From an uncultured Methanosarcinales archaeon (GTDB lineage: Archaea; Nanobdellota; Nanobdellia; Woesearchaeales; ARS49): a stretch of DNA of 64,000 bases. Each line of letters begins with the position of its first letter. Position 1 is the stretch's first letter. The position numbers were made by a program, and so were the translations under genes. The DNA lies in the NCBI GenBank assembly GCA_964353335.1, contig CAYGVI010000003.1, positions 263,085-327,084 on the forward strand. The letters are read 5' to 3'. The notes beneath the pieces were generated by a model, which was not told the DNA's origin, searched no databases, and saw nothing but the letters and a program-made list of their open reading frames with translations. Positions 17,609 to 59,022 of this stretch are shown here, in pieces.

Positions 17609-17665
17609 AGGCATTTCCGAGGATAATTGGTATATAAACATTTCTATGGCGTATTTGTTTTCGGC

Positions 17666-18595: not shown

Positions 18596-18633
18596 TGTGT
18601 TCAAGCCCGATTTTGAATTATATAAATGTTTGG

Positions 18634-41000: not shown

Positions 41001-43118
41001 AAATCCCACAGCGCTGAAATAAACGTAACTAAGGACATGACGTCATACACTTACTATGTTGCCTGCAAGAACACAGCAGAGCTGCCTTCTGCAACAGTGC
41101 CTGTCAAATTCAGCGTTGACACAACCATACCATTCGCGATAACAAGCCTCACCCCGCCATACTCCAACTCAACAGAATTCAGCATCGCCCTGCAGACAAA
41201 CAAGCGCGCATTATGCTACATTGCAGAAGACCCTGAAGTCACGCCCACTTTCATGGGATTGATGGGCCATTCGCACGTCTACCCTGTTGAAGTCAATAAG
41301 TCAGGCAATTATTCCTGGTATGTGAAGTGCAGCACAGGCGCAGGAAGCGAGGTTGCTGATATGTGGATCAATGTGCTTGTTGACACAACCCCGCCTGTAA
41401 TGCTGTATGTGAATGACAGTTCCAACCTGGCTGAGACTCCTGATGTCTCTTACTTCCTTGACCAGTTGATGGTAAAATTCCTTGGAGTTGACAATGAGAC
41501 CGCTGTTAATGCGTATTATTACCGCCTGCAGACTTTCTTCGCGAACGCCACAATCCTCAACTGGACTCTCAGCACAAACACAAACGGCACAGCATTTTAC
41601 GTGACAGGGTTGAACCTCACCGACGGCAACAAGTACAGGTTCGAGGCCTATCCTGTGAACATTATCGGGCTGCAGGGCGAGGCAAAGCAGAGCGATGGTG
41701 TGACGATTGATTCAACCAAGAAGCCTGCTGACTGCGTTAATGACATTCAGGATGGAAATGAAACAGACCTTGACTGCGGTGGCTTATGCCCTGGCTGCAA
41801 TGATGGCGGCAAGTGCAATGCTGATACAGACTGCCTGTCAGGATTCTGCGACAATGGACTCTGCGCACTGGTCGGCTGCGATGATGTTGCAAAGAATGGC
41901 AATGAAACAGATGTTGACTGCGGCGGAGGAGTGTGCCTGCCGTGCGGAATGAACAAGAGCTGCGTGCAGGATGCTGACTGCGCGAGCGGCAGCTGCAATT
42001 ATGGCACGTGCGGCGACCCGATACCATGCTCAGACGGCTTGCTCACAGGAACAGAATCAGACATTGACTGCGGAGGCTCATGCCCGAACAAGTGCGGCGA
42101 GGGAAAGAACTGCCAGGTGCCTTCTGACTGCGCAGGCGCACTGCTTTGCATTGACGAAACCTGCCAGGGATTGCTCGACAGCGACAATGACGGCGTTGAG
42201 GACGCAAAAGACAAGTGCCCGAACACGCCTGTCGGTGAAGCAGTTGATGAAAACGGCTGCTCTGCCTCGCAAAGGTTCACCTGTGGCGATGAGATATCTG
42301 ACGGCTGGAGGATAAAGTACTTTGGCAGCGTGCTTTGCGACGGAGACGGCGCCCCTGGTGCAGACCCTGACAAGGACGGCCTTACAAATGTTGAGGAATA
42401 CAGGGCGCGCACTGACCCGGCAAACGCAGACACTGATGGCGATGGATGGAATGACAAGGTTGAGCTTGACAAGGGCTATGACCCTCTTGACCCTGCTTCG
42501 CACCCGCCAAGCAAGGTGCGTATTTTGCTCTGGACTCTGCTCATACTTCTTTTGCTTGCAGTTCTGGGTGTCGGCGGATGGCTCGGCTACCAGTATTACA
42601 TGGAGAAGAGGCTTGAAGCCCTTCCGCCTTCAATACCTGCAAAGGCAGAAGCCCCTGAGCGCAAGTACAGGAAGTGGCCTTCAATAATTGAAAAGCTGCG
42701 CAGGATAGCGCGCAAGGAAGAGCCTGGTGTCATTGACCGCGACTGGGTATCGCTCGCAGAGCTTTCAGAGCGCCTGAAGGAAGGGAAAGTGCACGTGCAC
42801 AAGGATGTCTTTGAACGCCTTGAGGGCCTGATAAGCGGAAAGATTCCAAAGGAGGAGACAGAAAGCATCCTTGAGGCAATCCAGAAGGAGCCAAAGGCAT
42901 TCAAGCTTTTGCGCAGGATTTCATTTGAGAAGCTCTCTCCTGCTGAAAAGGAGTTTGTGCGCAAGCGCCTTGCATTCCTAAAGTCAGGAAAGCTCACATC
43001 AGCAGAGCTTGAGCAGGTGCTCACAAAGCTGCGCATAACCGCAGCATATTATAGGACTCACAGGGAAGAGCTTGAGCGCGAGCTTGAGGAATGGCTTGAT
43101 GAGCGGAGGCACAAATGA
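38040..43118 (+). CDS. Giant (1,692 aa) Cys-rich surface protein with thrombospondin-type-3-like Ca-binding repeats, C-terminal TM anchor and cytoplasmic coiled-coil tail
   Basis: Signal 'MRKLLLIAVVAAFFYMALFS'. Three ~40-aa tandem repeats '(N)ETDxDCGGxCxxCxxGxxCxxxxDCxSGxCxxGxC' (nt ~41730-42170). TSP3-like 'DSDNDGVEDAKDKCPNTP' and 'DPDKDGLTNVEEY...DTDGDGWNDKVELD' motifs. TM 'ILLWTLLILLLLAVLGVGGWLGY', then a Lys/Glu-rich tail. Confidence 0.7.
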   Translation: MRKLLLIAVVAAFFYMALFSQQASGQEQGCCCEPIYHRGIIEERSACEEKGYNFTSELPAEVGESCDPICNSTFGIPIIITPPADCESPFFNPAPMSVVAKAVKGKKQIRLIYTVPCPMQAIAVNISRCAGDDCEDFSQIAQMSPTGVYTDASPDLLWNTPYTYMVVITSRISGASEPGFAIGNAGDIECWNQGFDKFCISDYYYTRFQEYLSMYGYKDTSADAFAGDLQSSVELTFADKFNTGRYCNDINLLSDTGLSCPEGKKCVSGKLGLACITPTSCEGGGLFGLYSSLETCEGTASAKKYCFFDRSHSSVDRCYSCSPQMSCADYRSEGTCNRDNCFAGNCSWKPVFPDIGIGVCVDSRFPNCAWCTKQGTEGLENTDAYNEVFDQCTTRKSIALTVPNYLCTFDKNAQESNGCDATACMDYNDTDCGSPAGGIQLNPDNSLEVGSTDPCSIKVCQLQSGIGCLKNADGNGLFDCGIKSDDRRQCELDHYPPNTTFVATSYKPNRMDWLEARMLDQVNGTADADYMQGKQGYRLRVCVDSEETPCAEATTFAETNLSLLNFNDLYLQAGRDVVATMSDGENTLKYYGVDRSNNPEVIKEMTILACDKCQGPKVLGINVTPSRSYEGKFYTISEIPVITVAFNELSTLTTATLSIGNKVMPVNVMPLGGANYDYTFIPINTLEDGEYLLAFNAKDSNGLLMDLPGLAIIVVDTTPGDVTILPPDGTVINDTSVAISFTFNQPPVSLLGAYLDNEVWISKYATKKKIMNLTSSLVETEPNKVYDTTVDELYGGKKNIRVYAEDFAGNPVIGKSSFWINSGPLQMRMREPSWGVSATYVFDIAIDTSIAATCKYAYDLPAPVPVAAFNDFLAPFPEEKEVVHKIPGFNKISFGDMKAHKLSVYCKAGANITMETFELRVDPSPPTIKSAYADPAVIIERRTPSVDIFTTYLKAQTDDDGFCRYSTESKPFILMDGLFSGFDEYPKKSHSAEINVTKDMTSYTYYVACKNTAELPSATVPVKFSVDTTIPFAITSLTPPYSNSTEFSIALQTNKRALCYIAEDPEVTPTFMGLMGHSHVYPVEVNKSGNYSWYVKCSTGAGSEVADMWINVLVDTTPPVMLYVNDSSNLAETPDVSYFLDQLMVKFLGVDNETAVNAYYYRLQTFFANATILNWTLSTNTNGTAFYVTGLNLTDGNKYRFEAYPVNIIGLQGEAKQSDGVTIDSTKKPADCVNDIQDGNETDLDCGGLCPGCNDGGKCNADTDCLSGFCDNGLCALVGCDDVAKNGNETDVDCGGGVCLPCGMNKSCVQDADCASGSCNYGTCGDPIPCSDGLLTGTESDIDCGGSCPNKCGEGKNCQVPSDCAGALLCIDETCQGLLDSDNDGVEDAKDKCPNTPVGEAVDENGCSASQRFTCGDEISDGWRIKYFGSVLCDGDGAPGADPDKDGLTNVEEYRARTDPANADTDGDGWNDKVELDKGYDPLDPASHPPSKVRILLWTLLILLLLAVLGVGGWLGYQYYMEKRLEALPPSIPAKAEAPERKYRKWPSIIEKLRRIARKEEPGVIDRDWVSLAELSERLKEGKVHVHKDVFERLEGLISGKIPKEETESILEAIQKEPKAFKLLRRISFEKLSPAEKEFVRKRLAFLKSGKLTSAELEQVLTKLRITAAYYRTHREELERELEEWLDERRHK

Positions 43119-43633
43119 ATAATCGTGCGCAAATGATAGGCCAGGTTTTCATCTTTGTCATAGCGGGGCTTGTCTTCGTGCTTATCCTGGGCTATGGCTA
43201 CAAGGCAATAATGGGCTTAATGGAAAAAGGCGAGAAGGTCCAGCTGATTGACTTCCGCAACAAGCTTGACTCCTCAATCAACATCATAAAAAGGGATTAT
43301 GGGAGCGTGCAGCGCGTTGACCTTATTGTGCCTTCAAATACAGATGAAGTCTGCTTTGCGACTTCTGACAAGAATGATGTGCGTTCGGGCGAATGGGAAA
43401 AGAATTTCCAGGAAGAGCGCCCATTGTTTTACGGCGCTTGGGTAACCGGCACTGAGAATGTGTTCTTTGTGCCAAAACAGTCCACTCCAATACCTGAGAA
43501 GGATATTGTTGTTGACCCTGAAGGCAAGGGCTATCTCTGCGTCAATGCTGCAGGCGGCAGGATAAGCCTGCGCATGGAGGGCATTGGAAGCAAGGTGCTG
43601 ATAACAGAATGGCCTGTGCAGGGGGCAGAATGA
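43115..43633 (+). CDS. Pilin-like protein with class III signal peptide
   Basis: 172 aa; 'MNNRAQMIGQVFIFVIAGLVFVLILGYGY'; start overlaps the upstream stop. Confidence 0.5.
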   Translation: MNNRAQMIGQVFIFVIAGLVFVLILGYGYKAIMGLMEKGEKVQLIDFRNKLDSSINIIKRDYGSVQRVDLIVPSNTDEVCFATSDKNDVRSGEWEKNFQEERPLFYGAWVTGTENVFFVPKQSTPIPEKDIVVDPEGKGYLCVNAAGGRISLRMEGIGSKVLITEWPVQGAE

Positions 43634-44712
43634 GCAAGCGCGCGGTTGAAATGCAGTTCAACTGGATTTTCATCCTGATAGCAGGCGCTGTCATCCTTGC
43701 TTTCTTTTTCAACGTTGTGCAAAAGCAGCGCGCGCTCAGCGAGGAAAAGCTTTCAATAAAGCTTGCATCGCAGATGGATGCTATTTTTTCAGGAGCTATA
43801 GAAAGCAAGGGCACAATCCAGCCGCTCGCAACCCCCAAGCCAGGGATTGCGTTTTCCTGCAGTGATACCTGCGTCTGCAAATACCACGTAGGCAAAAGCG
43901 GAATAGAGTTTAATGACAAACTGATTTTCGCGCCTCCCTTAATCAAGGAACAGGATGCAAGGGCATGGGCTGTTGAGTGGAAGCTGCCGTTCCGCATTGC
44001 AAACTTCTTGATGCTCACAAATCCCGCAATAAAGTATTACCTTGTTTATGACTCTGCAAACCCGCTGTCAGCGCAGGCTTTCCAGCGCATCAGCAAGGGG
44101 CTGCCAAAGGAAATCAACAGGGAAACAATCTCATCCCCTTCAGGAGCAGGGGATGTTTCACCAGAGGGGTATGTGCAGACGCGCTTTGTTTTCATCGGCA
44201 CATCAGAGCCTGACCTTAGCAATCTCAGGATGGAATTCCAGAGCGAGGATGTTTCAGGCGTTTGGATTGATGACACTCTTGAGAAAGTTGTGTTTTACGA
44301 GAAATCAGACCCTGACAGGCTTGAATTCAACCAGTACCCTTCGTCCCTTGCCGGCGAGGAGACTGCTTATGCGACAATATTTGCCGCAGACCACATGATG
44401 TACAACTGCATGATGCAGCGCGCATTTGACAAGCTCGGCGCAATAGCAGGCGTGCACGAAGCCCGCGCCCGCGCTTTGCAGGAAACTATGGGCGCGCTTG
44501 ACACTCCGCGGCTTGACTGTGTTGGCGCTTATGACCCGATTATCACCTCGCTTGCGAATATGAGGCAGAAGGCAGTATTGCTTGGCACTTCATTTTCCCA
44601 GGAAGCCGATGCGCAGGGCGCAGGAGCCCTTGCTGGAATACTCGGAGTCCAGACAGAGCTTAACACCCAGAATACAAACCTGATAAAGCAGAACTGCCCG
44701 GAGATTTACTGA
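43609..44712 (+). CDS. Pilin-like protein with class III-like signal peptide
   Basis: 367 aa; 'MSKRAVEMQFNWIFILIAGAVILAFFF'; overlaps upstream gene. Confidence 0.45.
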   Translation: MACAGGRMSKRAVEMQFNWIFILIAGAVILAFFFNVVQKQRALSEEKLSIKLASQMDAIFSGAIESKGTIQPLATPKPGIAFSCSDTCVCKYHVGKSGIEFNDKLIFAPPLIKEQDARAWAVEWKLPFRIANFLMLTNPAIKYYLVYDSANPLSAQAFQRISKGLPKEINRETISSPSGAGDVSPEGYVQTRFVFIGTSEPDLSNLRMEFQSEDVSGVWIDDTLEKVVFYEKSDPDRLEFNQYPSSLAGEETAYATIFAADHMMYNCMMQRAFDKLGAIAGVHEARARALQETMGALDTPRLDCVGAYDPIITSLANMRQKAVLLGTSFSQEADAQGAGALAGILGVQTELNTQNTNLIKQNCPEIY

Positions 44713-45194
44713 TGAAAAAAGCGCAGATACAGATGTTTGAGACTGTTGGCGTGCTTGTGGTATTCTTCTTCCTGCTTGTTGCCGGCGCAGTGTTTTATTT
44801 TAACATCCAGAAGTCATCTATGCAGAAGGAGCTTGTCCAGCAGGCTCAGCTCAGAAGCCTGCAGTCAGCCCAGCGCGCTGTCTTTTTGCCAGAGCTTGAC
44901 TGCAGCTTTGCACGCGTGACGCGCGACAACTGCTTTGACCGCTTCAAGATCGCGGCATTGCATGAAATTATCGCAAATGATGACCACACGCGCCAGGTTT
45001 ATACCCGCTCTTTCGGATATGCAAACATCTCTGTAACAGAGGTCTTTCCAGGCTCTGGGATGACTGTGATTTATGACTATCCGCCTGAGGAATACCGCGG
45101 CATACTGAAGTCGCAGCTGCCTGTCCTGCTTTATGACCCTGTGACATGGGATGCTGCATTTGGAATAATGGAGGTCACAACATATGCGTCGTGA
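44712..45194 (+). CDS. Pilin-like protein with class III signal peptide
   Basis: 160 aa; 'MKKAQIQMFETVGVLVVFFFLLVAGAVFYF'. Confidence 0.5.
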   Translation: MKKAQIQMFETVGVLVVFFFLLVAGAVFYFNIQKSSMQKELVQQAQLRSLQSAQRAVFLPELDCSFARVTRDNCFDRFKIAALHEIIANDDHTRQVYTRSFGYANISVTEVFPGSGMTVIYDYPPEEYRGILKSQLPVLLYDPVTWDAAFGIMEVTTYAS

Positions 45195-45675
45195 TAAGCG
45201 CGGCCAGATGGAGATAATGGGCCTGGCAATAATAGTGATACTTGTTTCCCTTGCGATGCTCTTTGCAGTGCAGTGGATGCTTAAGCCTTCAACAGCAACT
45301 GTCCAGAAGACAAAGCAGTCTGTTCTCGCCACAAGTATGCTCACCACAATGGTCGGCACAACAACAGACTGCAACAAGCGCACAGTTGGTGATTTGCTTG
45401 GCGACTGCGCGCTCACGCAGGGTGCGACAAAATGCGCTGACATGACATCCTGCGATTATGTGCGCGGGGTAATGGGCAGCATCTTTAACGCGACAATGAA
45501 AAAATGGAAGCTTAATTATTATTTCCACATCACCGGAGCGAGTTCTGTTGAGGATATGAAGTTCGGAAGCGGCTCCACGCCCCAGCCGTGCAAAGGCGCA
45601 AAGCAGGGCAAGGAATACCCCCTTGTCGTCACCCAGACATATGAGCTCAAGCTCTATCTTGATATCTGCGGGTGA
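45184..45675 (+). CDS. Pilin-like protein with class III signal peptide
   Basis: 163 aa; 'MRRDKRGQMEIMGLAIIVILVSLAMLFAV' (KRG|Q plus hydrophobic helix); 8 Cys in the mature part. Confidence 0.5.
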   Translation: MRRDKRGQMEIMGLAIIVILVSLAMLFAVQWMLKPSTATVQKTKQSVLATSMLTTMVGTTTDCNKRTVGDLLGDCALTQGATKCADMTSCDYVRGVMGSIFNATMKKWKLNYYFHITGASSVEDMKFGSGSTPQPCKGAKQGKEYPLVVTQTYELKLYLDICG

Positions 45676-48635: not shown

Positions 48636-49112
48636 ATGGTTTCGAAAAAAGAACTGTTGATTGTGGCGAATTTGCGGAAGAATGCGCGGGTGAAGCTCAC
48701 AGAGCTGTCGCGCAGGACAGGCCTGCCGGTGAGCACGCTGTTTGACCGCGTCCATAATCTCTGCGATTTGGGCATAACAAGGCTCAGCGCGCTGCTTGAC
48801 TTTCCCGCGATGGGCTTTGGGACCTGCGCCACGATTCTTTTGAAGGTCGCAAAGGAAAAGCGCGATGAGCTCAGGGAGCACCTGATTGTTGCCCATTCCG
48901 TGAACTCCCTGATGCGCGTCAATAATGGCTATGACTTCATGGCAGAGTGTGTTTTCAGGGACATGCGCGAGCTTGAGGAGTTCTGCGAAAATCTCGAGCA
49001 GGCTTACGGCGTCAGGGGAAAGGAGCTGCATTTTGTGATTGAGGAGCTGAAGCGCGAGGGATTTCTTTCAGAGCCTTCGCTTGTCAGGCAGGTGGTAAAG
49101 GATGGGAAGTGA
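48636..49112 (+). CDS. Lrp/AsnC-family transcriptional regulator
   Basis: Start at the internal ATG 48636, in frame with ORF 48321..49112; 'KKELLIVANLRKNARVKLTELSRRTGLPVSTLFDRVHNL' HTH, then a RAM domain. Confidence 0.75.
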   Translation: MVSKKELLIVANLRKNARVKLTELSRRTGLPVSTLFDRVHNLCDLGITRLSALLDFPAMGFGTCATILLKVAKEKRDELREHLIVAHSVNSLMRVNNGYDFMAECVFRDMRELEEFCENLEQAYGVRGKELHFVIEELKREGFLSEPSLVRQVVKDGK

Positions 49113-49416: not shown

Positions 49417-49773
49417 GTGTTTGAAATGGATGAAACAATTGATTCAAAGGTGGAGGGTGCAAAAACTCCTTCAAAGATTGGAAGGTTTTTTGGCAATGCG
49501 GTTATGTACTTGGTTGTAATCGGCGCTGCAGGAGGAATTGGCGCAATCGGCAAGCAGGTGTATTATGACATCAAGGGAATCAGGCCTGTTGTGATGACTA
49601 ATGATGAGTATAATCAGTTTTCAGAGATTATGTCTGACTTGAGCAAAGCAAGGCATGAATACCTCTGCGAGCAGGCAAGGTATATCCGCGAAACTGTTAT
49701 GCCCACTATTGACAAGAATGGCGATGGCCATATCACCCGCGAGGAAGTGGGTTTGCCTCCAAAACAGCACTAA
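49417..49773 (+). CDS. Small membrane protein with canonical EF-hand Ca-binding loop
   Basis: 118 aa; TM 'AVMYLVVIGAAGGIGAIG'; 'DKNGDGHITREE' is a 12-residue EF-hand loop (D1,N3,D5,G6,I8,E12). Confidence 0.45.
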   Translation: MFEMDETIDSKVEGAKTPSKIGRFFGNAVMYLVVIGAAGGIGAIGKQVYYDIKGIRPVVMTNDEYNQFSEIMSDLSKARHEYLCEQARYIRETVMPTIDKNGDGHITREEVGLPPKQH

Positions 49774-49779
49774 CCAAGG

Positions 49780-49800
49780 AGTAAAGCTTATATACCTAAA
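49780..49800 (+). promoter_or_regulatory. Candidate BRE/TATA promoter for the small pilin gene
   Basis: 'gtaaagCTTATATAcc' ~35-45 nt upstream of the ATG at 49837; SD-like 'agaggtg' 7 nt upstream of the start. Confidence 0.35.
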
Positions 49801-49836
49801 TATTTCCCGAAGCAACATTGTAAGAGGTGTTCAAAT

Positions 49837-50142
49837 ATGGATAAGAAAGCTCAGGGGCTACCAATAACAACAATTATCATAGCTATCCTTGGACTGGTTG
49901 TTCTGGTCATTTTGTTCGCAATCACTACAGGCAGGCTTGCCATATTTGGAAGGGCTACTGCAGAATGCCAGGGCATTTGTGTCGGTGAATACACTGGCGC
50001 AACCCCTGACCAAAATGCCCGCGAATGCACAGCTGGTTTTGAGAAAGAAGTTGGCGGCAATTATGTTAAGCCAGGACAGCCGCAGAGTATCAAGGCAGAG
50101 GAAATACTCAAGTGCTCGCGCTGCTGCCTGCCAATTGCCTGA
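49837..50142 (+). CDS. Small pilin (class III signal peptide), paralog 1; candidate major pilin
   Basis: 101 aa; 'MDKKAQGLPITTIIIAILGLVVLVILFAI'; mature part has 6 Cys including a C-terminal 'CSRCC'. Confidence 0.55.
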   Translation: MDKKAQGLPITTIIIAILGLVVLVILFAITTGRLAIFGRATAECQGICVGEYTGATPDQNARECTAGFEKEVGGNYVKPGQPQSIKAEEILKCSRCCLPIA

Positions 50143-50272
50143 TGGCGCTTATCACAGAAGCAACGCCCGGAAAAATTGTTGTTTTGATTTTCCTCGCGCT
50201 GCTGCTAATATACCTTGTCACCACATTGTTTGTGCTTGACAAGCAGCTTGTAATACCAATAATACCCGTACC

Positions 50273-50551
50273 ATGAAGAAAGCACAAGGTCTTCCAATAA
50301 CAACAATCATTATTGCAGTTCTTGGGCTGGTTGTTCTGATTGTTATTATGGGAATATTCGGGGTCCGCAGCCAGAAGTTCGGCAAGGGCGTAAGCGAGGT
50401 AGCTGAGCCCGTCTGCCAGGCGCAGTATGTTACTTCCATGACTGACTGCGATGCACGTGGCGGCGAAGCCCAGGTTGGCAGCTTTGTTAAGGAAGACAAG
50501 AGCCGCCTTGGCTTTACAGAAGTCTGTTGCTCTAAGGCACAATCACCCTAA
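50273..50551 (+). CDS. Small pilin (class III signal peptide), paralog 2
   Basis: 92 aa; 'MKKAQGLPITTIIIAVLGLVVLIVIMGIFG', near-identical N-terminus to paralog 1; C-terminal 'VCCSK'. Confidence 0.55.
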   Translation: MKKAQGLPITTIIIAVLGLVVLIVIMGIFGVRSQKFGKGVSEVAEPVCQAQYVTSMTDCDARGGEAQVGSFVKEDKSRLGFTEVCCSKAQSP

Positions 50552-50715
50552 ACCCCTTCTTTTTTCACCGAAAGCCTTATATAAATAGTATTCTCGGAAT
50601 TGCTTATGAAAAAAGAGGCTGTGACATACACCCTACTTTTGTGGCTCGCAATGCTTCTTATACTGTTCTTAATCATAATTTCTGTCATGAGGCGCATGAC
50701 CGCAGGCGGTGCACC

Positions 50716-51642
50716 TTGAGGCGCGGCGCAATCGGTGTTAACACCCTTGTCAGTCTGGCAGTGCTGCTTATCGTGGTTTTTGTGATGCTGGGGTTGATTC
50801 CTGGGTTTACGCAAAAGCTTCAGGCAGCTGAAAGCGCGAGCACGTGCTCGTGGTCTATCCTTCTTGCTTCTGTGCAAAAGCTCGGCTCAGCAGGAATTGC
50901 ACAGGGAATTCCAGAGGGCTGCAAGGCAATAATGGTCAATGTCTCAATGAAAGACCTTGAGAAAAACCAGAGGCTCGCAAGCAACCGCATATCAGAGTTC
51001 ATGAACAAGCCTGACATTTACAAATCACAGTATTTCACAAACACAAACAAGGAAACACTTAACGAATTCGCGCTCGACAAGATACTTGCAGATGAGCTCG
51101 TTGACTGCTGGGAAAAAGTCTTCAAGGGAAAAATGCCCTTGTTTGATGAATGGTGGCGGCTTTACTCATGGAAAGAAGGCAACCCTGGCAGTGGTCCGGT
51201 TGCTCTGCAAGTCTGGAATGTGCAAGTGCATGGTCCGCCTGTCAACTGCGTTATTTGCTCGCGAATAACATTTTCAGATGAAGTTATTTCACAATTTAAG
51301 CAAAAGCAAATAATCTCACTTGAAGAATGGATGTCCCTGAATCCAGTTCCTCGGACAAATACTCCGTATCTTCAGTATATTTATGAAGGCCAGACCGGCA
51401 CAGACCTGTTCAAGCCAAAATACAGGCCAAAATACAGCTTTGTTGCTGATGAGCGTGGATTAGCGGTTCTTTATCAGCGCGTGAATGTCCATGGACTCGA
51501 AAGCGCTGTCACAACACCCTTGAAATGGATTGGAGCAATTCCTGAAAAAACTCCAGACCTGAACTATCTGAAGCTTGTTCCTTACTCGCAGGAAGCCATA
51601 ATTTCACAGGATGGCGAGGGCTGCACGCTTATAATTGACTAA
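50716..51642 (+). CDS. Pilin/archaellin-like protein with class III signal peptide (probable TTG start)
   Basis: ORF track gives an ATG at 50641, but that adds 25 residues with no function. A TTG at 50716 preceded by 'ggcggtg' yields 'MRRGAIGVNTLVSLAVLLIVVFVMLGL', a textbook archaeal class III signal; ~308 aa. Confidence 0.45.
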   Translation: MRRGAIGVNTLVSLAVLLIVVFVMLGLIPGFTQKLQAAESASTCSWSILLASVQKLGSAGIAQGIPEGCKAIMVNVSMKDLEKNQRLASNRISEFMNKPDIYKSQYFTNTNKETLNEFALDKILADELVDCWEKVFKGKMPLFDEWWRLYSWKEGNPGSGPVALQVWNVQVHGPPVNCVICSRITFSDEVISQFKQKQIISLEEWMSLNPVPRTNTPYLQYIYEGQTGTDLFKPKYRPKYSFVADERGLAVLYQRVNVHGLESAVTTPLKWIGAIPEKTPDLNYLKLVPYSQEAIISQDGEGCTLIID

Positions 51643-51809
51643 AATGATAAAAACACTTTATTCGTTGTGGAAAAACAGGAAGGCAATGGATATTCCCGGA
51701 TGGGCTTATGTCATCGCTTTGATTATCGGTCTGTTTGTGATACTGTTTGCAATCTGGATTGCTGCAAAGTCAGGTTCCAAGCAGTCCGGCTTCCTGGAGC
51801 AAATATAAG

Positions 51810-54800
51810 ATGCACAAGAAAGGCCAATTCGCGGGCATTCCTATCCCAATAATACTTGGGATTGTCGTGATTCTGATAGTTTCAGGAGGGCTTCTCTGGA
51901 GCATGGGCGGTGGAATTGCGCAAAAAATATTCGGAGAGCGCGGCATCCTTCCGCTTGGCCAGAAAGAAGGGGCATTTGTGCCTTATACAGGTCCCCCGCT
52001 TACAGAAGATGAACGCAAGGTTTTGAACTCAGCGAATGCCCTTCGCTGTGCTCTAAACAGCGTTGCAGTGGGCGAATTCAGGCCAGACGACCCTAAAGTC
52101 TGCCCTCCGCCTCTTGAATCAGTGCCGCAAAATATTGTTCAATCCCCCACAGGTCAGGCATGGGTTGTTGTTACTGGAATGGCTGCAACACCAAAGGCAT
52201 ATGACGCCTCTGCTGTGCAGTGCACAGGGATGGCTCCTAACCGCATTGTTGCCCCTGCAACAGAGGATGAAACACTCGTGGCGATTACAAAGGAAATACT
52301 CGATTGCAAGGCAAGAGCTTCAGTCACTTACTCTTCGCAAGACCTGCGTTGTGCATACATTGATTACAAAAGGAAGGCGGACAGCTTTTCAATCGATGAG
52401 GACAAGCTGATCGCATTCATGGAAAAAAACAAGGCAAAATTCCCCGGTCAGGAGAAAACAATTGATGAACTGCTTTCAAGCGCGAATTATGCTTGGCAGA
52501 ACCTCATTGAGATACAAACAACTTTCAATAAGGGGAAAATCAGCAGCAATCCTGATGAAGTGTTCTGCGTCGACTTCAGGCACGGGACCGTACTGAATTA
52601 TTACATCAGCATAAATGACTGCGACCTTGACGCCTCAGAAACATTCTCCTGCTCTGTGAAAGACTTTGAACTGCCGCAGGATGTTGGCGGAACCACGGCG
52701 AAATTGTTCCTCTCGGCATACGGCGACCCGCGATGGCTTGTCTATTACGAGTCATTCCCGTCTGAGGCTGCCGAATACTGGCACAAGGAATGGAGCGACA
52801 TGTTCAACGTGTGGACCATCGCCACCGTAACCGCCTCAGGGATGCTTAACCTGGCTGGCGGAGCAGGAAAAGGGGCAAAGGCAGTGAAGGCTGTTGCTGA
52901 AAAGGAAGCCAAGGAGCTCGCAAAGGAGACTGGTGAGGCATTGGCAAAGCGCGGGATTGCCGAAGCAGAAAAAGTGATTATTAACCGGCTTGCCAAGAAC
53001 GGTGTTGAAAACACGATGAAAGCAGCAGTGATGAAAGAATCATTCCAGGGAATAAAAGGGGTTGGCGAGGAAGCTGCTGACGAGATAACAGAGGTTATTT
53101 TGAAATCTGTCGGAACAAGGTCAGGTCCTCGCGCATGGGAAAAAGCAATGGAGCAGGGTGTTGCAAAGCAGATTGATGATGTTGTTGAGAAGAGGATTAA
53201 GGATGTTCCTGATGCATTTGTCAAGACTTGGAGGGAAACGGTGCCAATAACCGAATTGACCGGCCCTGGAATGACTGGGCTGCCTGACGCAGAAATCCGC
53301 GCAAAGGCATTGCAGGCGTACAAGGAGTCTGTAAAGAAGTTTGTTATTGAGGGCAAGGAACTGCCTGAAGAAGCCATAGAGGCAGGTGCAAAGAGGACAA
53401 TGTCATTTGCAGGCACAGAAGTCAAGGGCGGGCTAAAAGAACTGATTGAAAGGGACTTGACTAAGGAAATGTCAGCCAATATTATCAAGAAGCGCGCTTA
53501 TGAAAATCTTCTTTCCAAGATGATTACAAAAGAGGGAACGCTGGATACTGCGCTGTTCACAAAGAATGCAGAGTCAGCAATCAACAGCCTTAATGCTATA
53601 GGACAAATAAACCCCACTGGGCTTGGAAAGGCACTGGGCGGGTCTAGAGAAATACTTGACATTTTGCTGTCAAACTCATTAGGCGGATTCTCCACAAAGA
53701 ATTTCCCAAAAATATGGAATCCAAAAGAGCTTTTTGCATTTATCACTGCGCAATCGCCGATTAAGCTTTCAGGCAGGGGTTTTGTAGTTGGAGGAACCGC
53801 AGTTAAAACCGTTGCTAACATGCCTAGCTGGGTTGCCACTCACTCCTATCCTGCAATGCTGCTAATTTCCTGGTTTATCGCAGCACAGGATTCTACTAAT
53901 CAAAAATTCAGGCCTGTTGGCGGAAATACCATTGCCATCAACCAGCCGACCCTGCTTGGTCCGACGCTGCCGCTTGACCTGACTGGTACCGCGTATGACT
54001 TTTTTATCCAAAACAAGGACAAGTACGGCCAAAGGATGTATTATGTCAGCCCGTGCAAGGCAGACCTTACGGTTTACAAGCGCAAGTGCACATGCTACAA
54101 GAACCCGCAGCTGCATAAGTTCACTTATCCCACAGGAACAATCAATGTTGAGCCCGGCTCTGTTAAACCTTTGTCAGGCTCAGTCCTTGAGGCAAAGTTC
54201 AAGACAAAATGGGAGCAGACTGCCAAAGCAGTAAAGTTTGAGAACTGGCGCGCGCAATGGAATGCTCTTGATGCAAAGACAAAATCAGATGTATACGGTG
54301 ATTCGTATGATAAGTATGCGCTCGCTGAGTACATTGATGAGGAAATGGACAAGTATGATGCCAATTTCTTCCAGGAAGTGGTGTCTCCTGTAGGTGGGCT
54401 TGTAAAGGGAAGGAGTGGAATAATAACCTGGCTTGCCGGGACACAAAATGTGCAAACCGGGCTTTCTGCGCAATTGTATGGTGAGAGGATGAAGGAGTGG
54501 TATGATGCCTCGCACGCAATCAAGCGCTGTGACCAACCAGGGTTTGTAAAGGACGTTATGAATTTCGGAGGCACGCTTTATTACAGCTATATGGCAGGAG
54601 GAAACCTGTTCGACACAACAATGGACGCTGAAGCCAAGAAGAATCTCGAGAATAGCCTGCTCCAGGACGAGTACTTCAAGCCAGACTGCCTTGAAATAGA
54701 AACAAAGGTTCTTGATGGCACTTATTGTTATGACTCCTTCCCAAAACTGGAATGGGTGAGGAATGCAGTCACGATTGCTTCGCTTGCCGCTGATGCTATT

Positions 54801-54908
54801 ATAATTGGAGGGTCCGGCGGGTTTGCCACACCGCTTGCTCTGCTTGGAACAGGGATTTTGTCAGCAGGGACTGATGTTGTGCTGGAGGCTTGGGAGAAAT
54901 GGCCATGA
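51810..54908 (+). CDS. Giant (~1,032 aa) protein with class III signal peptide (pilus-associated adhesin candidate)
   Basis: Internal ATG 51810 gives 'MHKKGQFAGIPIPIILGIVVILIVSGG'; large extracellular region, central Ala/Lys/Glu-rich helical segment, C-terminal hydrophobic Gly-rich tail. Confidence 0.55.
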   Translation: MHKKGQFAGIPIPIILGIVVILIVSGGLLWSMGGGIAQKIFGERGILPLGQKEGAFVPYTGPPLTEDERKVLNSANALRCALNSVAVGEFRPDDPKVCPPPLESVPQNIVQSPTGQAWVVVTGMAATPKAYDASAVQCTGMAPNRIVAPATEDETLVAITKEILDCKARASVTYSSQDLRCAYIDYKRKADSFSIDEDKLIAFMEKNKAKFPGQEKTIDELLSSANYAWQNLIEIQTTFNKGKISSNPDEVFCVDFRHGTVLNYYISINDCDLDASETFSCSVKDFELPQDVGGTTAKLFLSAYGDPRWLVYYESFPSEAAEYWHKEWSDMFNVWTIATVTASGMLNLAGGAGKGAKAVKAVAEKEAKELAKETGEALAKRGIAEAEKVIINRLAKNGVENTMKAAVMKESFQGIKGVGEEAADEITEVILKSVGTRSGPRAWEKAMEQGVAKQIDDVVEKRIKDVPDAFVKTWRETVPITELTGPGMTGLPDAEIRAKALQAYKESVKKFVIEGKELPEEAIEAGAKRTMSFAGTEVKGGLKELIERDLTKEMSANIIKKRAYENLLSKMITKEGTLDTALFTKNAESAINSLNAIGQINPTGLGKALGGSREILDILLSNSLGGFSTKNFPKIWNPKELFAFITAQSPIKLSGRGFVVGGTAVKTVANMPSWVATHSYPAMLLISWFIAAQDSTNQKFRPVGGNTIAINQPTLLGPTLPLDLTGTAYDFFIQNKDKYGQRMYYVSPCKADLTVYKRKCTCYKNPQLHKFTYPTGTINVEPGSVKPLSGSVLEAKFKTKWEQTAKAVKFENWRAQWNALDAKTKSDVYGDSYDKYALAEYIDEEMDKYDANFFQEVVSPVGGLVKGRSGIITWLAGTQNVQTGLSAQLYGERMKEWYDASHAIKRCDQPGFVKDVMNFGGTLYYSYMAGGNLFDTTMDAEAKKNLENSLLQDEYFKPDCLEIETKVLDGTYCYDSFPKLEWVRNAVTIASLAADAIIIGGSGGFATPLALLGTGILSAGTDVVLEAWEKWP

Positions 54909-55549
54909 AAAAGCTGTTTGCCATACTTTTGGCAATAATCATTGTAATCCTGATTATTCTCGGAACGCGGTGGATTATGCAGCCAAAAATTCACGTGTAC
55001 AGCAACAATCCTGCTGACTGGCTTTCCACTGTTCCAGGCGGCGTAAGTGTTGACGTAAAAGAGGCAACTCGCGGAAAAGGGTCATACAATGACGTTAATG
55101 AGCAGATTTTGGTTCCGGGAATGGGCTTTACTGCATTTGCGTATGAGGGAATTTACAAGAGTAATTTCTTTGGCACTAAGTACATTGATGAAAACGGAAA
55201 GACAATAATGGAAGTGACTCCAAACATGAATCCAAATGATGGAATCCTGCAGGGATTTATGGTTGAGCGGGCTGTTAATGGCACGTTGGAAACCTATATT
55301 TTCATTGATGAGGACTGGCGCAGGGCTCTTGGCAATGACATCAGGATTGTTTGGGGCTCTGATTATTCAAAGAGCAGGCCATTTTCTTTCAGGCAGTTAA
55401 GGACAGGAATTTATCATGATTTTGTGCAGGACGACAGCGGAAGGCTTCAGGCTGAAATAAGCGTTGGCGGGGTCCAAGTTGGAAACATGCAGACAGGCGG
55501 GGTTGACCCTATGCAGGCAGGGAACATAATAATGATGGCAATACATTAG
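54905..55549 (+). CDS. Membrane-anchored protein (pilin-like N-terminus)
   Basis: 'MKKLFAILLAIIIVILIILG'; ATGA overlap with the upstream stop; ~214 aa. Confidence 0.45.
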   Translation: MKKLFAILLAIIIVILIILGTRWIMQPKIHVYSNNPADWLSTVPGGVSVDVKEATRGKGSYNDVNEQILVPGMGFTAFAYEGIYKSNFFGTKYIDENGKTIMEVTPNMNPNDGILQGFMVERAVNGTLETYIFIDEDWRRALGNDIRIVWGSDYSKSRPFSFRQLRTGIYHDFVQDDSGRLQAEISVGGVQVGNMQTGGVDPMQAGNIIMMAIH

Positions 55550-55575
55550 AAAAAGTTAAATACGGGGAAGCAAAA

Positions 55576-55881
55576 ATGATGCTTATGAAGAAGCGCGGAC
55601 AGGGTTTGCCAATCAACACTATCATTCTTGCAGTGCTTGGGCTGGCTGTTCTTGTCATCCTTCTTTTCCTTGTGAGCGGCAAGCTGAGTGAGGGCTCCAA
55701 GAAGTATGGCAATATCACCCAGAGCGCAGAACAGCAGGCAAAGTCACAGGATGTTTGCGAGAGTGTCTTTGCCTATCCGCAGAGAAAGTGCCTTTCTTCA
55801 TCCGAGTGTACCCAAAGGAACGGCTTTGACAGGCCAGGGTACAAGGGCTGTGGTTCTAATGTTTGCTGCGAGCTTGGATAG
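55576..55881 (+). CDS. Small pilin (class III signal peptide), paralog 3
   Basis: 101 aa; 'MMLMKKRGQGLPINTIILAVLGLAVLVILLFLV'; C-terminal 'CGSNVCCELG'; same architecture as 49837/50273. Confidence 0.55.
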   Translation: MMLMKKRGQGLPINTIILAVLGLAVLVILLFLVSGKLSEGSKKYGNITQSAEQQAKSQDVCESVFAYPQRKCLSSSECTQRNGFDRPGYKGCGSNVCCELG

Positions 55882-55917: not shown

Positions 55918-56382
55918 ATGGACAAAAGAGGGGAAGTAGAGACTGCGCCGCTGATAGAACTTGTCAATATAGTGCGCTACGTAATCATTTTTCTCATCCT
56001 GCTCTCGATTTTTTACGGCACTTATGCATTGTTTTTCAAGGAAAAATCATCACCACAGCAGCTGGACTGGGACCGTGTTATCAGGGAAATCACTGCCCTT
56101 CCTGAAGGCAGGTCAGTGAATGTCATAACGTCTTCAGAGGGCTACCAGCTTTTCCTTTACGGTGGAAACAATGATGAGCAGCTTTGCGCAAAAAAGCCCT
56201 GCCTGTGCATTGAGCAGCCAGAAAAGCCAAGGAAATGCGCACTGCTTTCAGGTTTCCAGGACAACTGCGCAAACGGGCTTTGCGCCAGGCCGTCAATGTT
56301 CCCTGAGTCAGGAATACTGCCAAAAGGCACCCCTGTCCCAATCTGCAGGCAAAAAAACCAAATAACACTGGGCACGTGCTAA
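55918..56382 (+). CDS. Pilin-like protein (class III-like signal)
   Basis: 154 aa; 'MDKRGEVETAPLIELVNIVRYVIIFLILLSIFYG'; Cys-rich C-terminus. Confidence 0.4.
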   Translation: MDKRGEVETAPLIELVNIVRYVIIFLILLSIFYGTYALFFKEKSSPQQLDWDRVIREITALPEGRSVNVITSSEGYQLFLYGGNNDEQLCAKKPCLCIEQPEKPRKCALLSGFQDNCANGLCARPSMFPESGILPKGTPVPICRQKNQITLGTC

Positions 56383-56383
56383 G

Positions 56384-57298
56384 ATGTTCTCAAAAAAAGC
56401 ATCCTGGGTCGGTCTTGTATTGCATCCGTTATTTGAGACTGCCATCGCCCTGGGCATTGTGCTTCTTTACCTTCTCTGGTTCATACACGGAATAGGCGAA
56501 ACAGCCACGTATGAGAAAAGGTTTTTGTCAACAGACATTCCTTTGCTGATGGACTCAATACTTGCAATGCCGCAGAAAGGAAACCTGTACGCGCTTTACA
56601 ACCCACAGCGCTCGACAGATTTCAGCACAAATTACAGCTTTAGCTTCTTAAAAAACCAGGTAATAATAATGGCAGGACCTGCAGACAAAAAGCAGGTCAC
56701 TGGATATTATACTTCAAAGCCAGGAATATATGTGCAGGAAAAACAGTTTATTGCAAAAGACGCCATGATTGTTCCGCTGTTTATACTGCAGGGAAATGAC
56801 CTGTTGATTGACAATGCGAACAAGCGCGAACTCACATACAACCGCAACATAATGCCCTGCTCAGGCCCAAGATTCCCAGGAACACTGAGCATACAGGGGG
56901 AAAATGCTGCAGCACAGCTTCTTTTGGGCCAGCGCTGGGCTGTAAAGTCAGGCGGAAGCGGTGCTTTCAGCATGCAAATCAAGCAAGGGCAGGAAACTGT
57001 TGTCAAGGCATACTTTAACGCAGAACAGCCTGCAGACCAGCTTGCCCAGAGCAGGCGCATTGCCTGCGAGGTTGCAAATGCAGCAGTGCGCGGGCTTGAC
57101 AAGATAGGCATTGATGTTGCCGGCTCTGCATTCATCCCGATAAATCCCAAGCACACAGGCAGCACTGATGATGACTTCCTGCAGGGGCTTGGTGTTTTGC
57201 TTGAGATTGATACTCCTGAAAAGCTTGACAATGTTCAGACACAGGTAACGCCGCTTGCGCTTGCGGTCGGAGAAGGGGTGCAGAATGCGAAATCGTAA
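56384..57298 (+). CDS. Pilin-like/membrane-anchored protein
   Basis: 304 aa; 'MFSKKASWVGLVLHPLFETAIALGIVLLYLLWF'. Confidence 0.4.
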   Translation: MFSKKASWVGLVLHPLFETAIALGIVLLYLLWFIHGIGETATYEKRFLSTDIPLLMDSILAMPQKGNLYALYNPQRSTDFSTNYSFSFLKNQVIIMAGPADKKQVTGYYTSKPGIYVQEKQFIAKDAMIVPLFILQGNDLLIDNANKRELTYNRNIMPCSGPRFPGTLSIQGENAAAQLLLGQRWAVKSGGSGAFSMQIKQGQETVVKAYFNAEQPADQLAQSRRIACEVANAAVRGLDKIGIDVAGSAFIPINPKHTGSTDDDFLQGLGVLLEIDTPEKLDNVQTQVTPLALAVGEGVQNAKS

Positions 57299-57773
57299 GG
57301 CTGTGCTGGCAGAGGGGGTTATTTTCTGGATGATTTACATCGCTATGACCGGAGTTGTTATTTTCCTGATACGCGCAATCCCATCAACAGTTTACAGCCA
57401 GGCAACAGAGACTTTCGGAATGGAAAACGCAGTGCTCACAGACCGCGTTTACAATGAGGTCGCGTGGGAATCGCCTTTGACGCAGCGCGAATACATTGGC
57501 GAGCTTCCAAAGCTCTCTGACTGGGACACAAAGCGCATCAACAGCGCATTTGACACGCTCGGCGCTCCAAGGCAGCTCAGCTTCAAATTGACTCTTGAGG
57601 GCAAAGAGGCGTATTATGACGAGGCGTTTTACAAGCGCGCAAAGCCATTGTCTCCTGTGCGCTACAAGAGCTTTGTTGAGACGCGCCCTGTCTGGATTGT
57701 GGAAGACAAAAAAATTGCAACACTGGAGATTGACCAGGTGTTTGCGCCAGTGCCTCCTGGAGGGATGGTATGA
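57285..57773 (+). CDS. Pilin-like protein with class III signal peptide
   Basis: Start 'MRNRKAVLAEGVIFWMIYIAMTGVVIFLI' overlaps the upstream gene by 14 nt. Confidence 0.45.
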   Translation: MRNRKAVLAEGVIFWMIYIAMTGVVIFLIRAIPSTVYSQATETFGMENAVLTDRVYNEVAWESPLTQREYIGELPKLSDWDTKRINSAFDTLGAPRQLSFKLTLEGKEAYYDEAFYKRAKPLSPVRYKSFVETRPVWIVEDKKIATLEIDQVFAPVPPGGMV

Positions 57774-58159
57774 ACAGGAAGGCGGCAATGGGAAGGGCAT
57801 TGACAATCCTCATGTCAGCAGGGATTATCGCGCTGTTTTTCTTCATATTCATATTTGTTATTGAAATAGGCACGCCTGGCAAGGCAATGGGTATCAGCGA
57901 AAACCTGAACGGCCTCAGCAGAGAAAGCCAGCTGAGGACAATAATAAGCCATTCTGCAGATGACCTTGCTCAGGCAAAGCCAGGCAGTGTTCCTGAGATG
58001 GTCAAAGAAACATTTGGCAAGGATGCAAAGTTTGCCCTGTATATCAACAACGCAATTGTTTCAGGAGCAAAAGTTGGCAGGGTAACTGCGGCAATTAACA
58101 CAATGCTTCCAAATTATGAGGGCAGCACTGTCAGTGTAAGGCTGGAGGTAGGCTCATGA
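57770..58159 (+). CDS. Pilin-like protein with class III signal peptide
   Basis: 129 aa; 'MNRKAAMGRALTILMSAGIIALFFFIFIFVI'. Confidence 0.45.
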   Translation: MNRKAAMGRALTILMSAGIIALFFFIFIFVIEIGTPGKAMGISENLNGLSRESQLRTIISHSADDLAQAKPGSVPEMVKETFGKDAKFALYINNAIVSGAKVGRVTAAINTMLPNYEGSTVSVRLEVGS

Positions 58160-59022
58160 TTTCCCTTTTGCGCAACAAAAAGGGAATGGACTACGCAGCA
58201 CTTCTTGTCCTTGTGGTTATTATCTGCCTGATGTACCTTTACATCCAGCTGCAGGGCAAGGTAAACACTTTCCAGGTCAGCATTGGCGAATCCCAGATTG
58301 CTGTCCTCAATGCGTATCAGGAAGGGGAAAAGGCATTGCTCTATGTTGACCAGTCTGCAAAATTCTCTGCATACAAAGCACTTGACACCCTTGCCCAGCG
58401 CGCAGGCGTGAAAGAATATGCGTGCGCAGACATAACAGAAGGAGGCAAAAAGATTAATTCTTGGACAAAACAAAATGGAACTATCGATGAATGCCTCGCT
58501 CTTGTCCAGCCGTATGACGCATTTAATGAGCTTATGAACGGCCACATGACAATTTATTCCTCAAAATACACAAATGCATCCCTGCCTGCGAACAATTATG
58601 AGATGCTTGTTCAGAAAGACAGCATCACAGGCACTGCAATCTCTTCTGCTTCGGTTTATCTCAAGCCGCCAACACAATATGCTGCATTCTATGTCTGGTT
58701 CATAAAAGCAGCAGAGGCAGAGCTGAAGAAGGCTGCAATCGGCGAATATGCATTCAAGCCCTCATTCACTGTTCCTGTAAAGGCAGAGCTTGGCATTTAC
58801 GAGAATATGAAAAACGAAGTGAAAGCGTTCTATACGTGCACAAACACAAACTCTATTGATGAATGCGCAAAAGCGCCAAAGCTTTTCACGCTTGCACGCA
58901 GCTCTGAAAACCCTGATTATCTGATTGCAACAGCAAAGAACCCTGTGAGCAACCCGTATGGTGCAATGAGCGACATTGTTTTCGCGATTTCTGCCCCTGT
59001 TGCCCCTGCTGTAACCGCGTAA
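58156..59022 (+). CDS. Pilin-like protein with class III signal peptide
   Basis: 288 aa; 'MISLLRNKKGMDYAALLVLVVIICLMYLY'; last gene of the coupled block. Confidence 0.45.
   Translation: MISLLRNKKGMDYAALLVLVVIICLMYLYIQLQGKVNTFQVSIGESQIAVLNAYQEGEKALLYVDQSAKFSAYKALDTLAQRAGVKEYACADITEGGKKINSWTKQNGTIDECLALVQPYDAFNELMNGHMTIYSSKYTNASLPANNYEMLVQKDSITGTAISSASVYLKPPTQYAAFYVWFIKAAEAELKKAAIGEYAFKPSFTVPVKAELGIYENMKNEVKAFYTCTNTNSIDECAKAPKLFTLARSSENPDYLIATAKNPVSNPYGAMSDIVFAISAPVAPAVTA

Follow-up and report, generated by a model that had tools for sequence, protein, structure and literature searches.

Small cysteine-rich proteins with a prepilin-like N-terminus in Woesearchaeota: a candidate family of type IV pilin-like mini-subunits

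Introduction

Woesearchaeota and their relatives are abundant, uncultivated archaea with tiny genomes, which are thought to live attached to other cells. Whether they encode fibre subunits of their own is the question raised by three small paralogous genes (copies 1, 2 and 3) in a 64,000-nucleotide (nt) stretch of an archaeal genome bin deposited as an uncultured Methanosarcinales archaeon and placed in the Woesearchaeales by GTDB (contig CAYGVI010000003.1, positions 263,085 to 327,084 of the forward strand; the whole stretch is hereafter called the window). A previous interpretation of the bare letters (hereafter the sequence-only reading) had proposed that the three genes encode the major subunits of a pilus. 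In 2016, Makarova et al. reported nanoarchaeal ATPases whose cognate pilins escaped identification (PMC4858521). In the literature we found no description of the family to which the three proteins belong (the QGL family) or of Woesearchaeal pilins specifically, and no expression, proteomic or imaging data on Woesearchaeota. Here we analyzed the three genes, their family and the gene island around them, and we weigh the filament-subunit reading against three others.

Results

Three small proteins share an N-terminal module

Reading of the open reading frames (ORFs) and alignment of their products confirmed three genes whose proteins have near-identical N-termini and a Cys-Cys pair close to the C-terminus (CSRCC, VCCSK and VCCELG; Table 1). 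The N-terminal sequences are MDKKAQGLPITTIIIAILGLVVL in copy 1, MKKAQGLPITTIIIAVLGLVVL in copy 2 and (MML)MKKRGQGLPINTIILAVLGLAVL in copy 3. Twenty alignment columns are identical in all three copies, nearly all of them within the first 25 residues, and beyond these the proteins are only 30-44% identical. Similar Cys spacings had also been claimed for the three; the terminal CC is indeed common to all, but the other positions are only partly alignable, and copies 1 and 3 have six Cys while copy 2 has four. Archaeal class III signals have Gly, Ala or Ser at -1, a charged residue at -2 and the cleavage site before the hydrophobic domain (PMC4371748), and each copy shows all three features at its predicted cut site (KKA/Q in copies 1 and 2, KRG/Q in copy 3; here and below the slash marks the predicted cut). 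Cleavage there would leave mature proteins of 88-96 amino acids (aa). The 27 uncharged residues that follow the Gln, together with the modelled helix described below, agree with the uninterrupted stretch of ~20 or more hydrophobic residues that makes up a class III hydrophobic domain (H-domain) at the mature N-terminus. Exact sequences of all three proteins are present on a public contig of 487,933 bp, each labelled 'hypothetical protein'.

The module defines a large family

QGLP-type N-termini occur in other archaeal genomes as well, and they mark a large family of Woesearchaeota and Nanoarchaeota. Copy 1 has 66 close homologues, and the nearest relatives of all three copies come from Woesearchaeota-type metagenome-assembled genomes (MAGs). 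A profile search of 1.84 billion cluster representatives returned 2668 matches at E <= 1e-3, including 400 at E <= 1e-10, and the best 150 of the 2668 are all 64-157 aa long. When one genome per prokaryotic species was scanned with a sequence pattern, 158 loci were found, of which 80 were kept. The kept loci are all titled Woesearchaeota, Nanoarchaeota, Nanoarchaeia, Nanobdellota or, if unclassified, 'archaeon', besides some third-party annotation (TPA) bins titled 'Methanosarcinales'. Essentially every such genome examined has the family, often in two to five copies annotated 'hypothetical'. Many of the family-bearing species-representative MAGs (those of loci L018, L020, L024, L026, L029 and others) carry the title 'uncultured Methanosarcinales archaeon'; these titles look like mislabels, because one checked bin, CAZDZV010000001.1 (= L011/L024), has Woesearchaeal synteny.

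The family consensus is M(K)KK[AG]QGL[SP][IL][NT]TIIIAALAL.VLVVL..IFTGR...F, followed by a Cys-rich head that ends in CC and 2-6 further residues. Its signature was calculated from 144 members (129 unique) of 95 loci in ~90 genomes, and its Cys statistics from 377 unique members. Residues -2/-1/+1 are [KR][AG]Q in 138 of the 144 (KAQ 65, KGQ 49, RGQ 13, RAQ 11), and the Gln at +1 is invariant (129/129 unique members). Ahead of this site stands a basic leader of 3-13 aa, and behind it a helix segment of 28 residues counted from the Gln, of which 27 are uncharged and the last is basic or polar (Arg in copy 1). Among the unique members the mean pairwise identity is 61% for the helix segment vs 24% for the head, and several near-invariant positions (V17 in 127/129, L18 in 121/129, F25 in 105/129, G27 in 101/129) lie well outside the pattern with which the members were collected. 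The median mature length is 89 aa. An even, non-zero number of Cys is found in 368 of the 377 members (97.6%; four Cys in 86, six in 268), with the first at mature position 39 in 232 and the CC 2-6 residues from the C-terminus in most. Such parity fits complete disulfide pairing, so that the stabilization of the heads by disulfides, as had been proposed, is probable.

Of the readings considered, the one with most support makes the three copies and their relatives a family of type IV pilin-like mini-subunits that is new and specific to this clade; we consider it about an even bet that they act as filament subunits, and then mostly as major or co-major ones. Their pilin-like nature, already put forward in the sequence-only reading, is supported by the [KR][AG]/Q prepilin-type site, by a long hydrophobic helix that is conserved and bears a small head, and by the many neighbouring proteins with similar class III signals (hereafter class-III-like). 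The role of major subunit is plausible for the three copies.

AlphaFold2 models agree in the N-terminal helix and differ in the head. Copy 1, modelled from a 42-sequence alignment, has a helix at residues 10-37 and a head of three short strands (mean predicted local distance difference test score (pLDDT) 77.8; predicted template modelling score (pTM) 0.47). Copy 3, modelled from a 60-sequence family alignment, has a very confident helix (residues 10-41, pLDDT 94-96) and a head that is not confidently folded.

The triplication is old

An 80-nt DNA repeat spans the N-terminal segment, and its versions in copies 2 and 3 are 76% and 61% identical to that of copy 1, so the DNA conservation noticed earlier between copies 1 and 2 is real. 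The recent duplication that had been read from it is not: each copy has positional orthologues in distant Woesearchaeota, and of the 26 N-terminal codons that copies 1 and 2 have in common, 15 are not the same, with 9 of these changes synonymous. Synonymous divergence and separate orthologues per copy rule out gene conversion too. The triplication is therefore old, and the likeness of the N-termini reflects purifying selection on an old protein module. The positional orthologue of copy 2 is L003 10398-10667, which ends in LGFNEVCCEK, and the head of copy 3 is orthologous to L003 17261-17599 and L005 16631-17008. These two orthologues of copy 3 have another type of leader and helix (KKRA/VEMSMQAIIV in L003, KKA/VELSVQTMII in L005). 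It seems that the QGL N-terminal module was swapped onto the copy 3 head in the lineage of the window, and such a swap fits an interchangeable assembly module. A viral origin was ruled out, as the family has no relatives on the viral contigs of IMG/VR.

Simple membrane anchors or filament subunits

Instead of polymerising, the proteins could stay in the membrane as small bitopic proteins, either because they are not cleaved (type II signal anchors) or because they are held there after cleavage. Their role would then be that of anchor, receptor or partner to the giant surface proteins and the hydrolase encoded in the same island, and the helix would be conserved for packing against other membrane components. 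We regard this as unlikely. When the Protein Data Bank (PDB) was searched by sequence with two family profiles, only receptor transmembrane (TM) helices were matched, at E >= 0.1, and the models gave no structural match to known pilins. Conserved TM microproteins that appear to be translationally coupled to the small genes suggest a membrane complex. Neither the syntenic loci, which were read throughout, nor a scan of the 80 family-bearing loci showed any assembly machinery linked to the island. On the other hand, an invariant Gln preceded by [KR][AG] exactly at the start of the helix, kept across 2668 sequence clusters, is unusual for simple anchors, and a charge-free segment of 27 residues so much better conserved than its ectodomain is rare in them. 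In addition, the [KR][AG]/Q site recurs on ~9 unrelated neighbours, which points to a shared processing enzyme.

Several observations weigh against filament subunits. In a Pfam sweep of 40 ORFs of the window, no T2SSE ATPase, T2SSF platform protein or A24 peptidase was found, and the ~4 kb past the right end of the window, followed in a near-identical contig, contain no pilus machinery. A T2SSE ATPase lies within 10 kb of a family member in only two of the 95 loci (L034 and L058), which by our estimate is about what chance would give in ~1-Mb genomes with one or two such ATPases. The ATPase locus of Nanoclepta minutus (L100) also encodes two conventional pilins (KRS/VSPIIATILL), more obvious partners of that ATPase than the QGL-module protein next to it. 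Curated hidden Markov models (HMMs) of pilins and class III signals (e.g. PF04021, PF07790 and those of NCBIfam) matched neither the three copies nor 14 further members at E <= 1; this is weak evidence of low power, because the clear pilin-like proteins that adjoin ATPases in L098 and L100 also have no Pfam match. PF04021 (DUF361) is the class III signal model of the Epd pilins compared below, and its signature is a Glu at +5 within a QxSxExxxL motif. The QGL family has Leu or Ile at +5 instead of Glu. The FlaFind pattern, too, may reject 'KAQGLP', which has Gly at +2. Finally, the head of copy 3 was modelled at a pLDDT of only ~50. In more general searches of Pfam, NCBIfam and PHROGs, nothing above threshold was obtained for the three proteins, their neighbours or the 14 members.

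ATPase loci in related archaea

Other searches for the machinery covered the family-bearing loci. A Walker-A regular expression run over 1.5 Mb of these loci found only an ABC transporter and Cdc6. With E. coli HofB and HofC as queries, phmmer detected one ATPase (L058), and with archaeal ATPase and T2SSF queries it detected two (L058 and L034) and no T2SSF. Machinery does occur in the same phylum-level group: in L098 ('Nanoarchaeia'), the gene of a PilB3-like ATPase precedes two T2SSF genes and several that encode class-III-like proteins.

In two Nanopusillaceae, L058 (9998-12807) and the cultivated Nanoclepta minutus (L100, 6001-9045), a QGL-module protein is separated from a T2SSE/PilB3-like ATPase by one OB-fold gene. 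The module of the Nanopusillaceae protein was aligned by hhalign with a probability of 96% over 37 columns, and the Nanopusillaceae QGL-module proteins have a different, larger head (126-143 aa, 4 or 6 Cys). This adjacency, the only suggestive one, may be old synteny rather than function, because the shared neighbour is RPA-like and RPA borders the Woesearchaeal island. In the Woesearchaeota-type locus L034 (207-7051), a 769-aa T2SSE ATPase, a 507-aa class-III-like protein (KKS/QITYFIII) and two coiled-coil proteins are encoded, with a family member ~6 kb away. Also encoded beside this ATPase are three polytopic membrane proteins, each of ~200 aa and without Pfam matches, which may be a divergent platform.

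These loci bear on another explanation, in which the small proteins are true class III substrates but minor pilins, or form a short pseudopilus piston that, much as bacterial type II secretion does, exports or displays the giant proteins and the hydrolase. The main pilin would in that case be another protein, encoded beside the ATPase. We think this improbable. It is favoured by the other, larger pilin-like proteins that ATPase loci carry (KRG/IIDVITLV and NRG/ISVIVSTLL in L098, besides the two KRS/VSPIIATILL proteins of L100) and by the island being rich in secreted, cargo-like proteins. However, no class-III-like product of the island is smaller than these proteins, and no other has a helix conserved throughout the clade; in addition, their genes have consensus promoters of their own, and the major pilins of Methanococcus and Haloferax are likewise encoded by small, unlinked genes.

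That the proteins are precursors of released cysteine-knot peptides, defensin- or toxin-like weapons against host or competitors with the helix as a mere export or anchor signal, is very improbable: the six-Cys pattern C-x-G-x-C ... C ... C ... CC of most members, a sub-threshold Pfam match of member P0204 to a family of defensin-like plant proteins (E=6.5e-4; 20.4 bits, with the cut-off at 25) and the peptidoglycan hydrolases of the island would fit, but that match was found for one of ten members scanned, no second cleavage site is conserved between helix and head, the conserved part is the helix and not the head, and the Nanopusillaceae keep the helix with completely different heads.

Operon layout and promoters

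The sequence-only reading had described the strongest promoter-like element of the locus upstream of copy 1. A transcription factor B recognition element with TATA box (BRE/TATA) and an AGAGGTG Shine-Dalgarno (SD) sequence are indeed present, the former ~29 nt upstream of the predicted transcription start with a predicted leader of ~20 nt, and five other genomes (L001, L003, L005, L013 and L048) keep this arrangement in front of their first small gene. Comparable BRE/TATA boxes, however, precede 33443, 45724, 50606, 55585, 55918 and 59071; equally good TATA boxes thus stand before several island genes, and a rank of strongest cannot be demonstrated. Copy 2 lacks both a promoter and an SD of its own, and a T6 tract stands behind it at 50560-50565; it is predicted to be co-transcribed with copy 1 as one operon, and copy 3 to be monocistronic. 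Public gene calls start copy 3 at 55576, but its most likely start is the ATG at 55585, because the TATA box ~29 nt upstream of that codon would give a leaderless mRNA and because the orthologue P0088 has 98 aa. The next promoter follows directly after copy 3.

Three small ORFs of the operons (50142-50276, 50606-50719 and 51635/51644-51808), which overlap their neighbours by TGATG, ATGA or TTGA, had been missed before. The first encodes a 44-aa microprotein whose start overlaps the stop of copy 1 (TGATG) and whose stop overlaps the start of copy 2 (ATGA), so it is predicted to be translationally coupled to both. The last, of ~55 aa, or 57 aa if read from the mechanical TTG start, begins in a class-III-like manner, NRKA/MDIPGWAYV. 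Orthologues of these two are present in L001, L003 and L005, and L001 has a 40-aa small TM ORF at the place of 50606-50719.

The conserved island and its neighbours

The three genes lie inside an island at 33.4-59.0 kb, where almost all products have either a signal peptide or a hydrophobic helix at the N-terminus. In about 17 of them [KR][AGS] directly precedes this helix, and 9 of the 17 have Gln at +1. At least eight genomes (L001-L015) keep the gene order. It opens with one or more giant surface proteins, followed by four class-III-like proteins (~165, 350, 170 and 165 aa), a kinase of APH or Pkinase type, an AbrB/MazE-PhoU regulator on the minus strand, an AsnC regulator, two or three small family members, more unknown proteins, a third small member, an Amidase_3 or SLT cell-wall hydrolase, three other proteins, and then RPA, YdjM and RadA.

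Table 1 Features of the island in window coordinates. A slash marks a predicted cut.
Feature	Position	Strand	Description
1692-aa surface protein	38040-43118		N-terminal signal, C-terminal TM helix, cytoplasmic coiled tail, Cys-rich modules
Four class-III-like proteins	43115..45675	+	NRA/QMIGQ, 172 aa; KRA/VEMQF, 360 aa; KKA/QIQMF, 160 aa; KRG/QMEIM, 163 aa
APH/protein-kinase-like protein	45724-47622		Membrane-anchored
AbrB/MazE-PhoU-type regulator	47609-48508	-	
Lrp/AsnC-type regulator	48636..49112	+	Pfam AsnC_trans_reg, E=3.4e-9
Copy 1 operon promoter and SD	49783..49829	+	'CTTATATA'; BRE/TATA AAAGCTTATATA at 49783-49794; SD AGAGGTG at 49823-49829
Copy 1	49837..50142	+	101 aa; predicted class III signal MDKKA/QGLP; 27-aa uncharged helix; 6-Cys head ending CSRCCLPIA
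Single-TM microprotein	50142..50276	+	44 aa; orthologues L001 10307-10438 and L005 10330-10485
Copy 2	50273..50551	+	92 aa; MKKA/QGLPITTIIIAVLGLVVL; 4-Cys head ending VCCSKAQSP
Operon between copies 2 and 3	50606..55549	+	37-aa TM microprotein at 50606-50719; 308-aa RRGA/IGVNTLV; ~55-aa ORF; 1032-aa KKG/QFAGIP; 214-aa protein
Copy 3 promoter	55548..55562	+	BRE/TATA AGAAAAAG-TTAAATA; TATA box TTAAATA at 55556-55562
Copy 3	55576..55881	+	101 aa, or 98 aa from ATG 55585; MKKRG/QGLPINTIILAVLGLAVL; 6-Cys head ending VCCELG
Distal island	55918..59022	+	Five more proteins with N-terminal TM helices, including 56384-57298

The block of four class-III-like proteins, conserved 3' of the giant surface protein in L001, L003, L005, L007, L009 and L011, would supply candidate minor-pilin-like components; the product of 44712 has a weak NCBIfam match to BasB (E=7e-4, below the curated cut-off). 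The giant protein itself has Asp-rich thrombospondin-type-3-like repeats (DSDNDGVEDAKD, DPDKDGLTN, DTDGDGWND), and its orthologues show faint TSP3_bac and Big_13 matches. A PDB sequence search with the products of 38040, 51810 and 45184 gave no match, nor did Pfam with the proteins of the operon between copies 2 and 3. The kinase-like gene and the AbrB/MazE-PhoU gene are conserved between the four-protein block and the AsnC regulator, which directly precedes the first small gene in every syntenic locus; in L007 a Pkinase-domain protein on the other strand replaces the kinase. Just upstream of copy 1, two small membrane proteins (49102-49413 and 49417-49773) have EF-hand-like calcium-binding loops, DKDRDCKITEKE and DKNGDGHITREE, with a Pfam EF-hand_5 match below threshold (E=1.6e-3).

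In the distal part of the island, the 304-aa product of 56384-57298 is 23% identical to L001 14486-15454 (PF01520; E=8e-12) and is, as judged from sequence, the diverged positional orthologue of the Amidase_3 (N-acetylmuramoyl-L-alanine amidase) of related islands. At the same position L009 has an SLT lytic transglycosylase. These amidase and transglycosylase genes hint at bacterial cell walls as the target; unknown families specific to Woesearchaeota or Pacearchaeota and large murein-hydrolase proteins have been noted before (PMC8204110).

The gene content of the window is archaeal (Cdc6, eRF1, PheRS alpha and beta, RFC, FEN1, RadA, RPA). Horizontal acquisition of the island was ruled out by a uniform GC content of 0.46-0.51 and clade-wide synteny, and an RNA element by the lack of Rfam matches and tRNAs in the window. 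A second cluster of five genes without Pfam matches (16646-22303, minus strand) is convergent with the RFC small-subunit gene. Its products include a 389-aa class-III-like protein (MRKRG/QASGSAAS...TLVGIITLLIIF), a protein of 517 aa and two that carry a lipobox (…LLAGC and …LTAC).

Discussion

How could proteins so small build a fibre? The short basic leader and the long hydrophobic segment would insert the protein in the membrane with its C-terminus outside. From the sequence rules of class III signals and the precedent of Methanococcus and Haloferax, we infer that the protein is cut before the invariant Gln and assembled through its helix by machinery encoded elsewhere. The cut, between Ala or Gly and the Gln, would be made by a prepilin (class III signal) peptidase whose gene lies elsewhere; it would remove 5-8 residues and leave the 88-96-aa mature protein. 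A PilB-type ATPase and a platform, also encoded elsewhere, would then pull the subunits out of the membrane, and these would stack via the near-invariant 27-residue helix into a thin filament. One tiny head per helix, locked by two or three disulfides, of which one would staple the C-terminus via the CC, may decorate the filament surface. As the assembly helix is common to all three copies, they might co-polymerise, or else serve as alternative main subunits that expose different surfaces. Tip, adhesin and lytic functions in host contact would come from the island's larger class-III-like proteins, its giant surface proteins and the hydrolase.

A wider proposal, possible in our view but not to be called likely, is that the QGL family provides the main fibre subunit that has been missing in Woesearchaeota and Nanoarchaeota. 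It would then make a new class of mini-pilin filament, with Epd-like machinery encoded elsewhere and an adhesin/murein-hydrolase tip, and its bearers would be pilus-mediated episymbionts of bacteria.

If the proteins are pilus subunits, they would offer a target for antibodies and mass spectrometry, a model for cryo-electron microscopy and a marker HMM for the attachment fibre. The QGL family would be a concrete candidate for the nanoarchaeal pilins and would explain why earlier censuses missed them. A conserved 25-kb island of ~20 unknown genes with giant surface proteins and peptidoglycan hydrolases would be tied to host contact, possibly with bacterial hosts. Even if they are not fibre subunits, the proteins make a new, well-defined class III signal peptide family with a clear processing-site signature and a 97.6% even-cysteine rule.

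Bacterial type IVa pilins have an N-terminal assembly helix and a head whose C-terminus is pinned by a disulfide (the D-region), and both traits are predicted for the QGL family; they differ in a G/F site, a Glu at +5, N-methylation and much larger four-stranded heads, to which we found no structural match. The cysteine-bonded pilin of Pyrobaculum arsenaticum is similar in its disulfides to those predicted here. Flp/Tad pilins are comparably small (50-80 aa) and are evolutionarily tied to the archaeal Epd system (10.64898/2026.04.22.720090), but they are bacterial, have a G/xxxxEY motif and lack a Cys-rich head.

The processing site most closely recalls the Epd pilins of Methanococcus maripaludis, which have sites RAQI, KGQV, KGQL and KGQI and a dedicated peptidase, EppA, that requires the Gln at +1 (PMC4371748). 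The Epd leaders are 5-13 aa long, and the proven major pilin MMP1685 (EpdE), with 74 aa and 62 in the mature form, is encoded far from the minor-pilin operon and the ATPase/platform genes (PMC3875500). The short leader, Lys or Arg at -2, Gly or Ala at -1, the Gln at +1, the very small size and the unlinked major pilin gene are thus alike, and the two platform genes of the Epd-type 'system 1', placed in methanogens and DPANN by a preprint (10.64898/2026.04.22.720090), recall those of the DPANN locus L098. In contrast, the major pilin of the Epd system reportedly has no globular head (10.64898/2026.04.22.720090), whereas QGL proteins have one of ~60 aa with predicted disulfides. Besides the difference at +5 and the missing PF04021 match, an EppA-like peptidase was not seen in the window or the loci.

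For the arrangement of three paralogues, the closest analogue is PilA1-PilA6 of Haloferax volcanii. These have RA/VSPVIG-type N-termini, are larger and not Cys-rich, and are haloarchaeal rather than DPANN proteins, and no homology to them was detected. They have a near-identical H-domain that is essential for assembly, are unlinked to pilB/pilC, and can each serve as the major pilin (PMC4371748). Like the three copies, they are several paralogues that present different heads on one H-domain, none of them encoded beside pilB/pilC.

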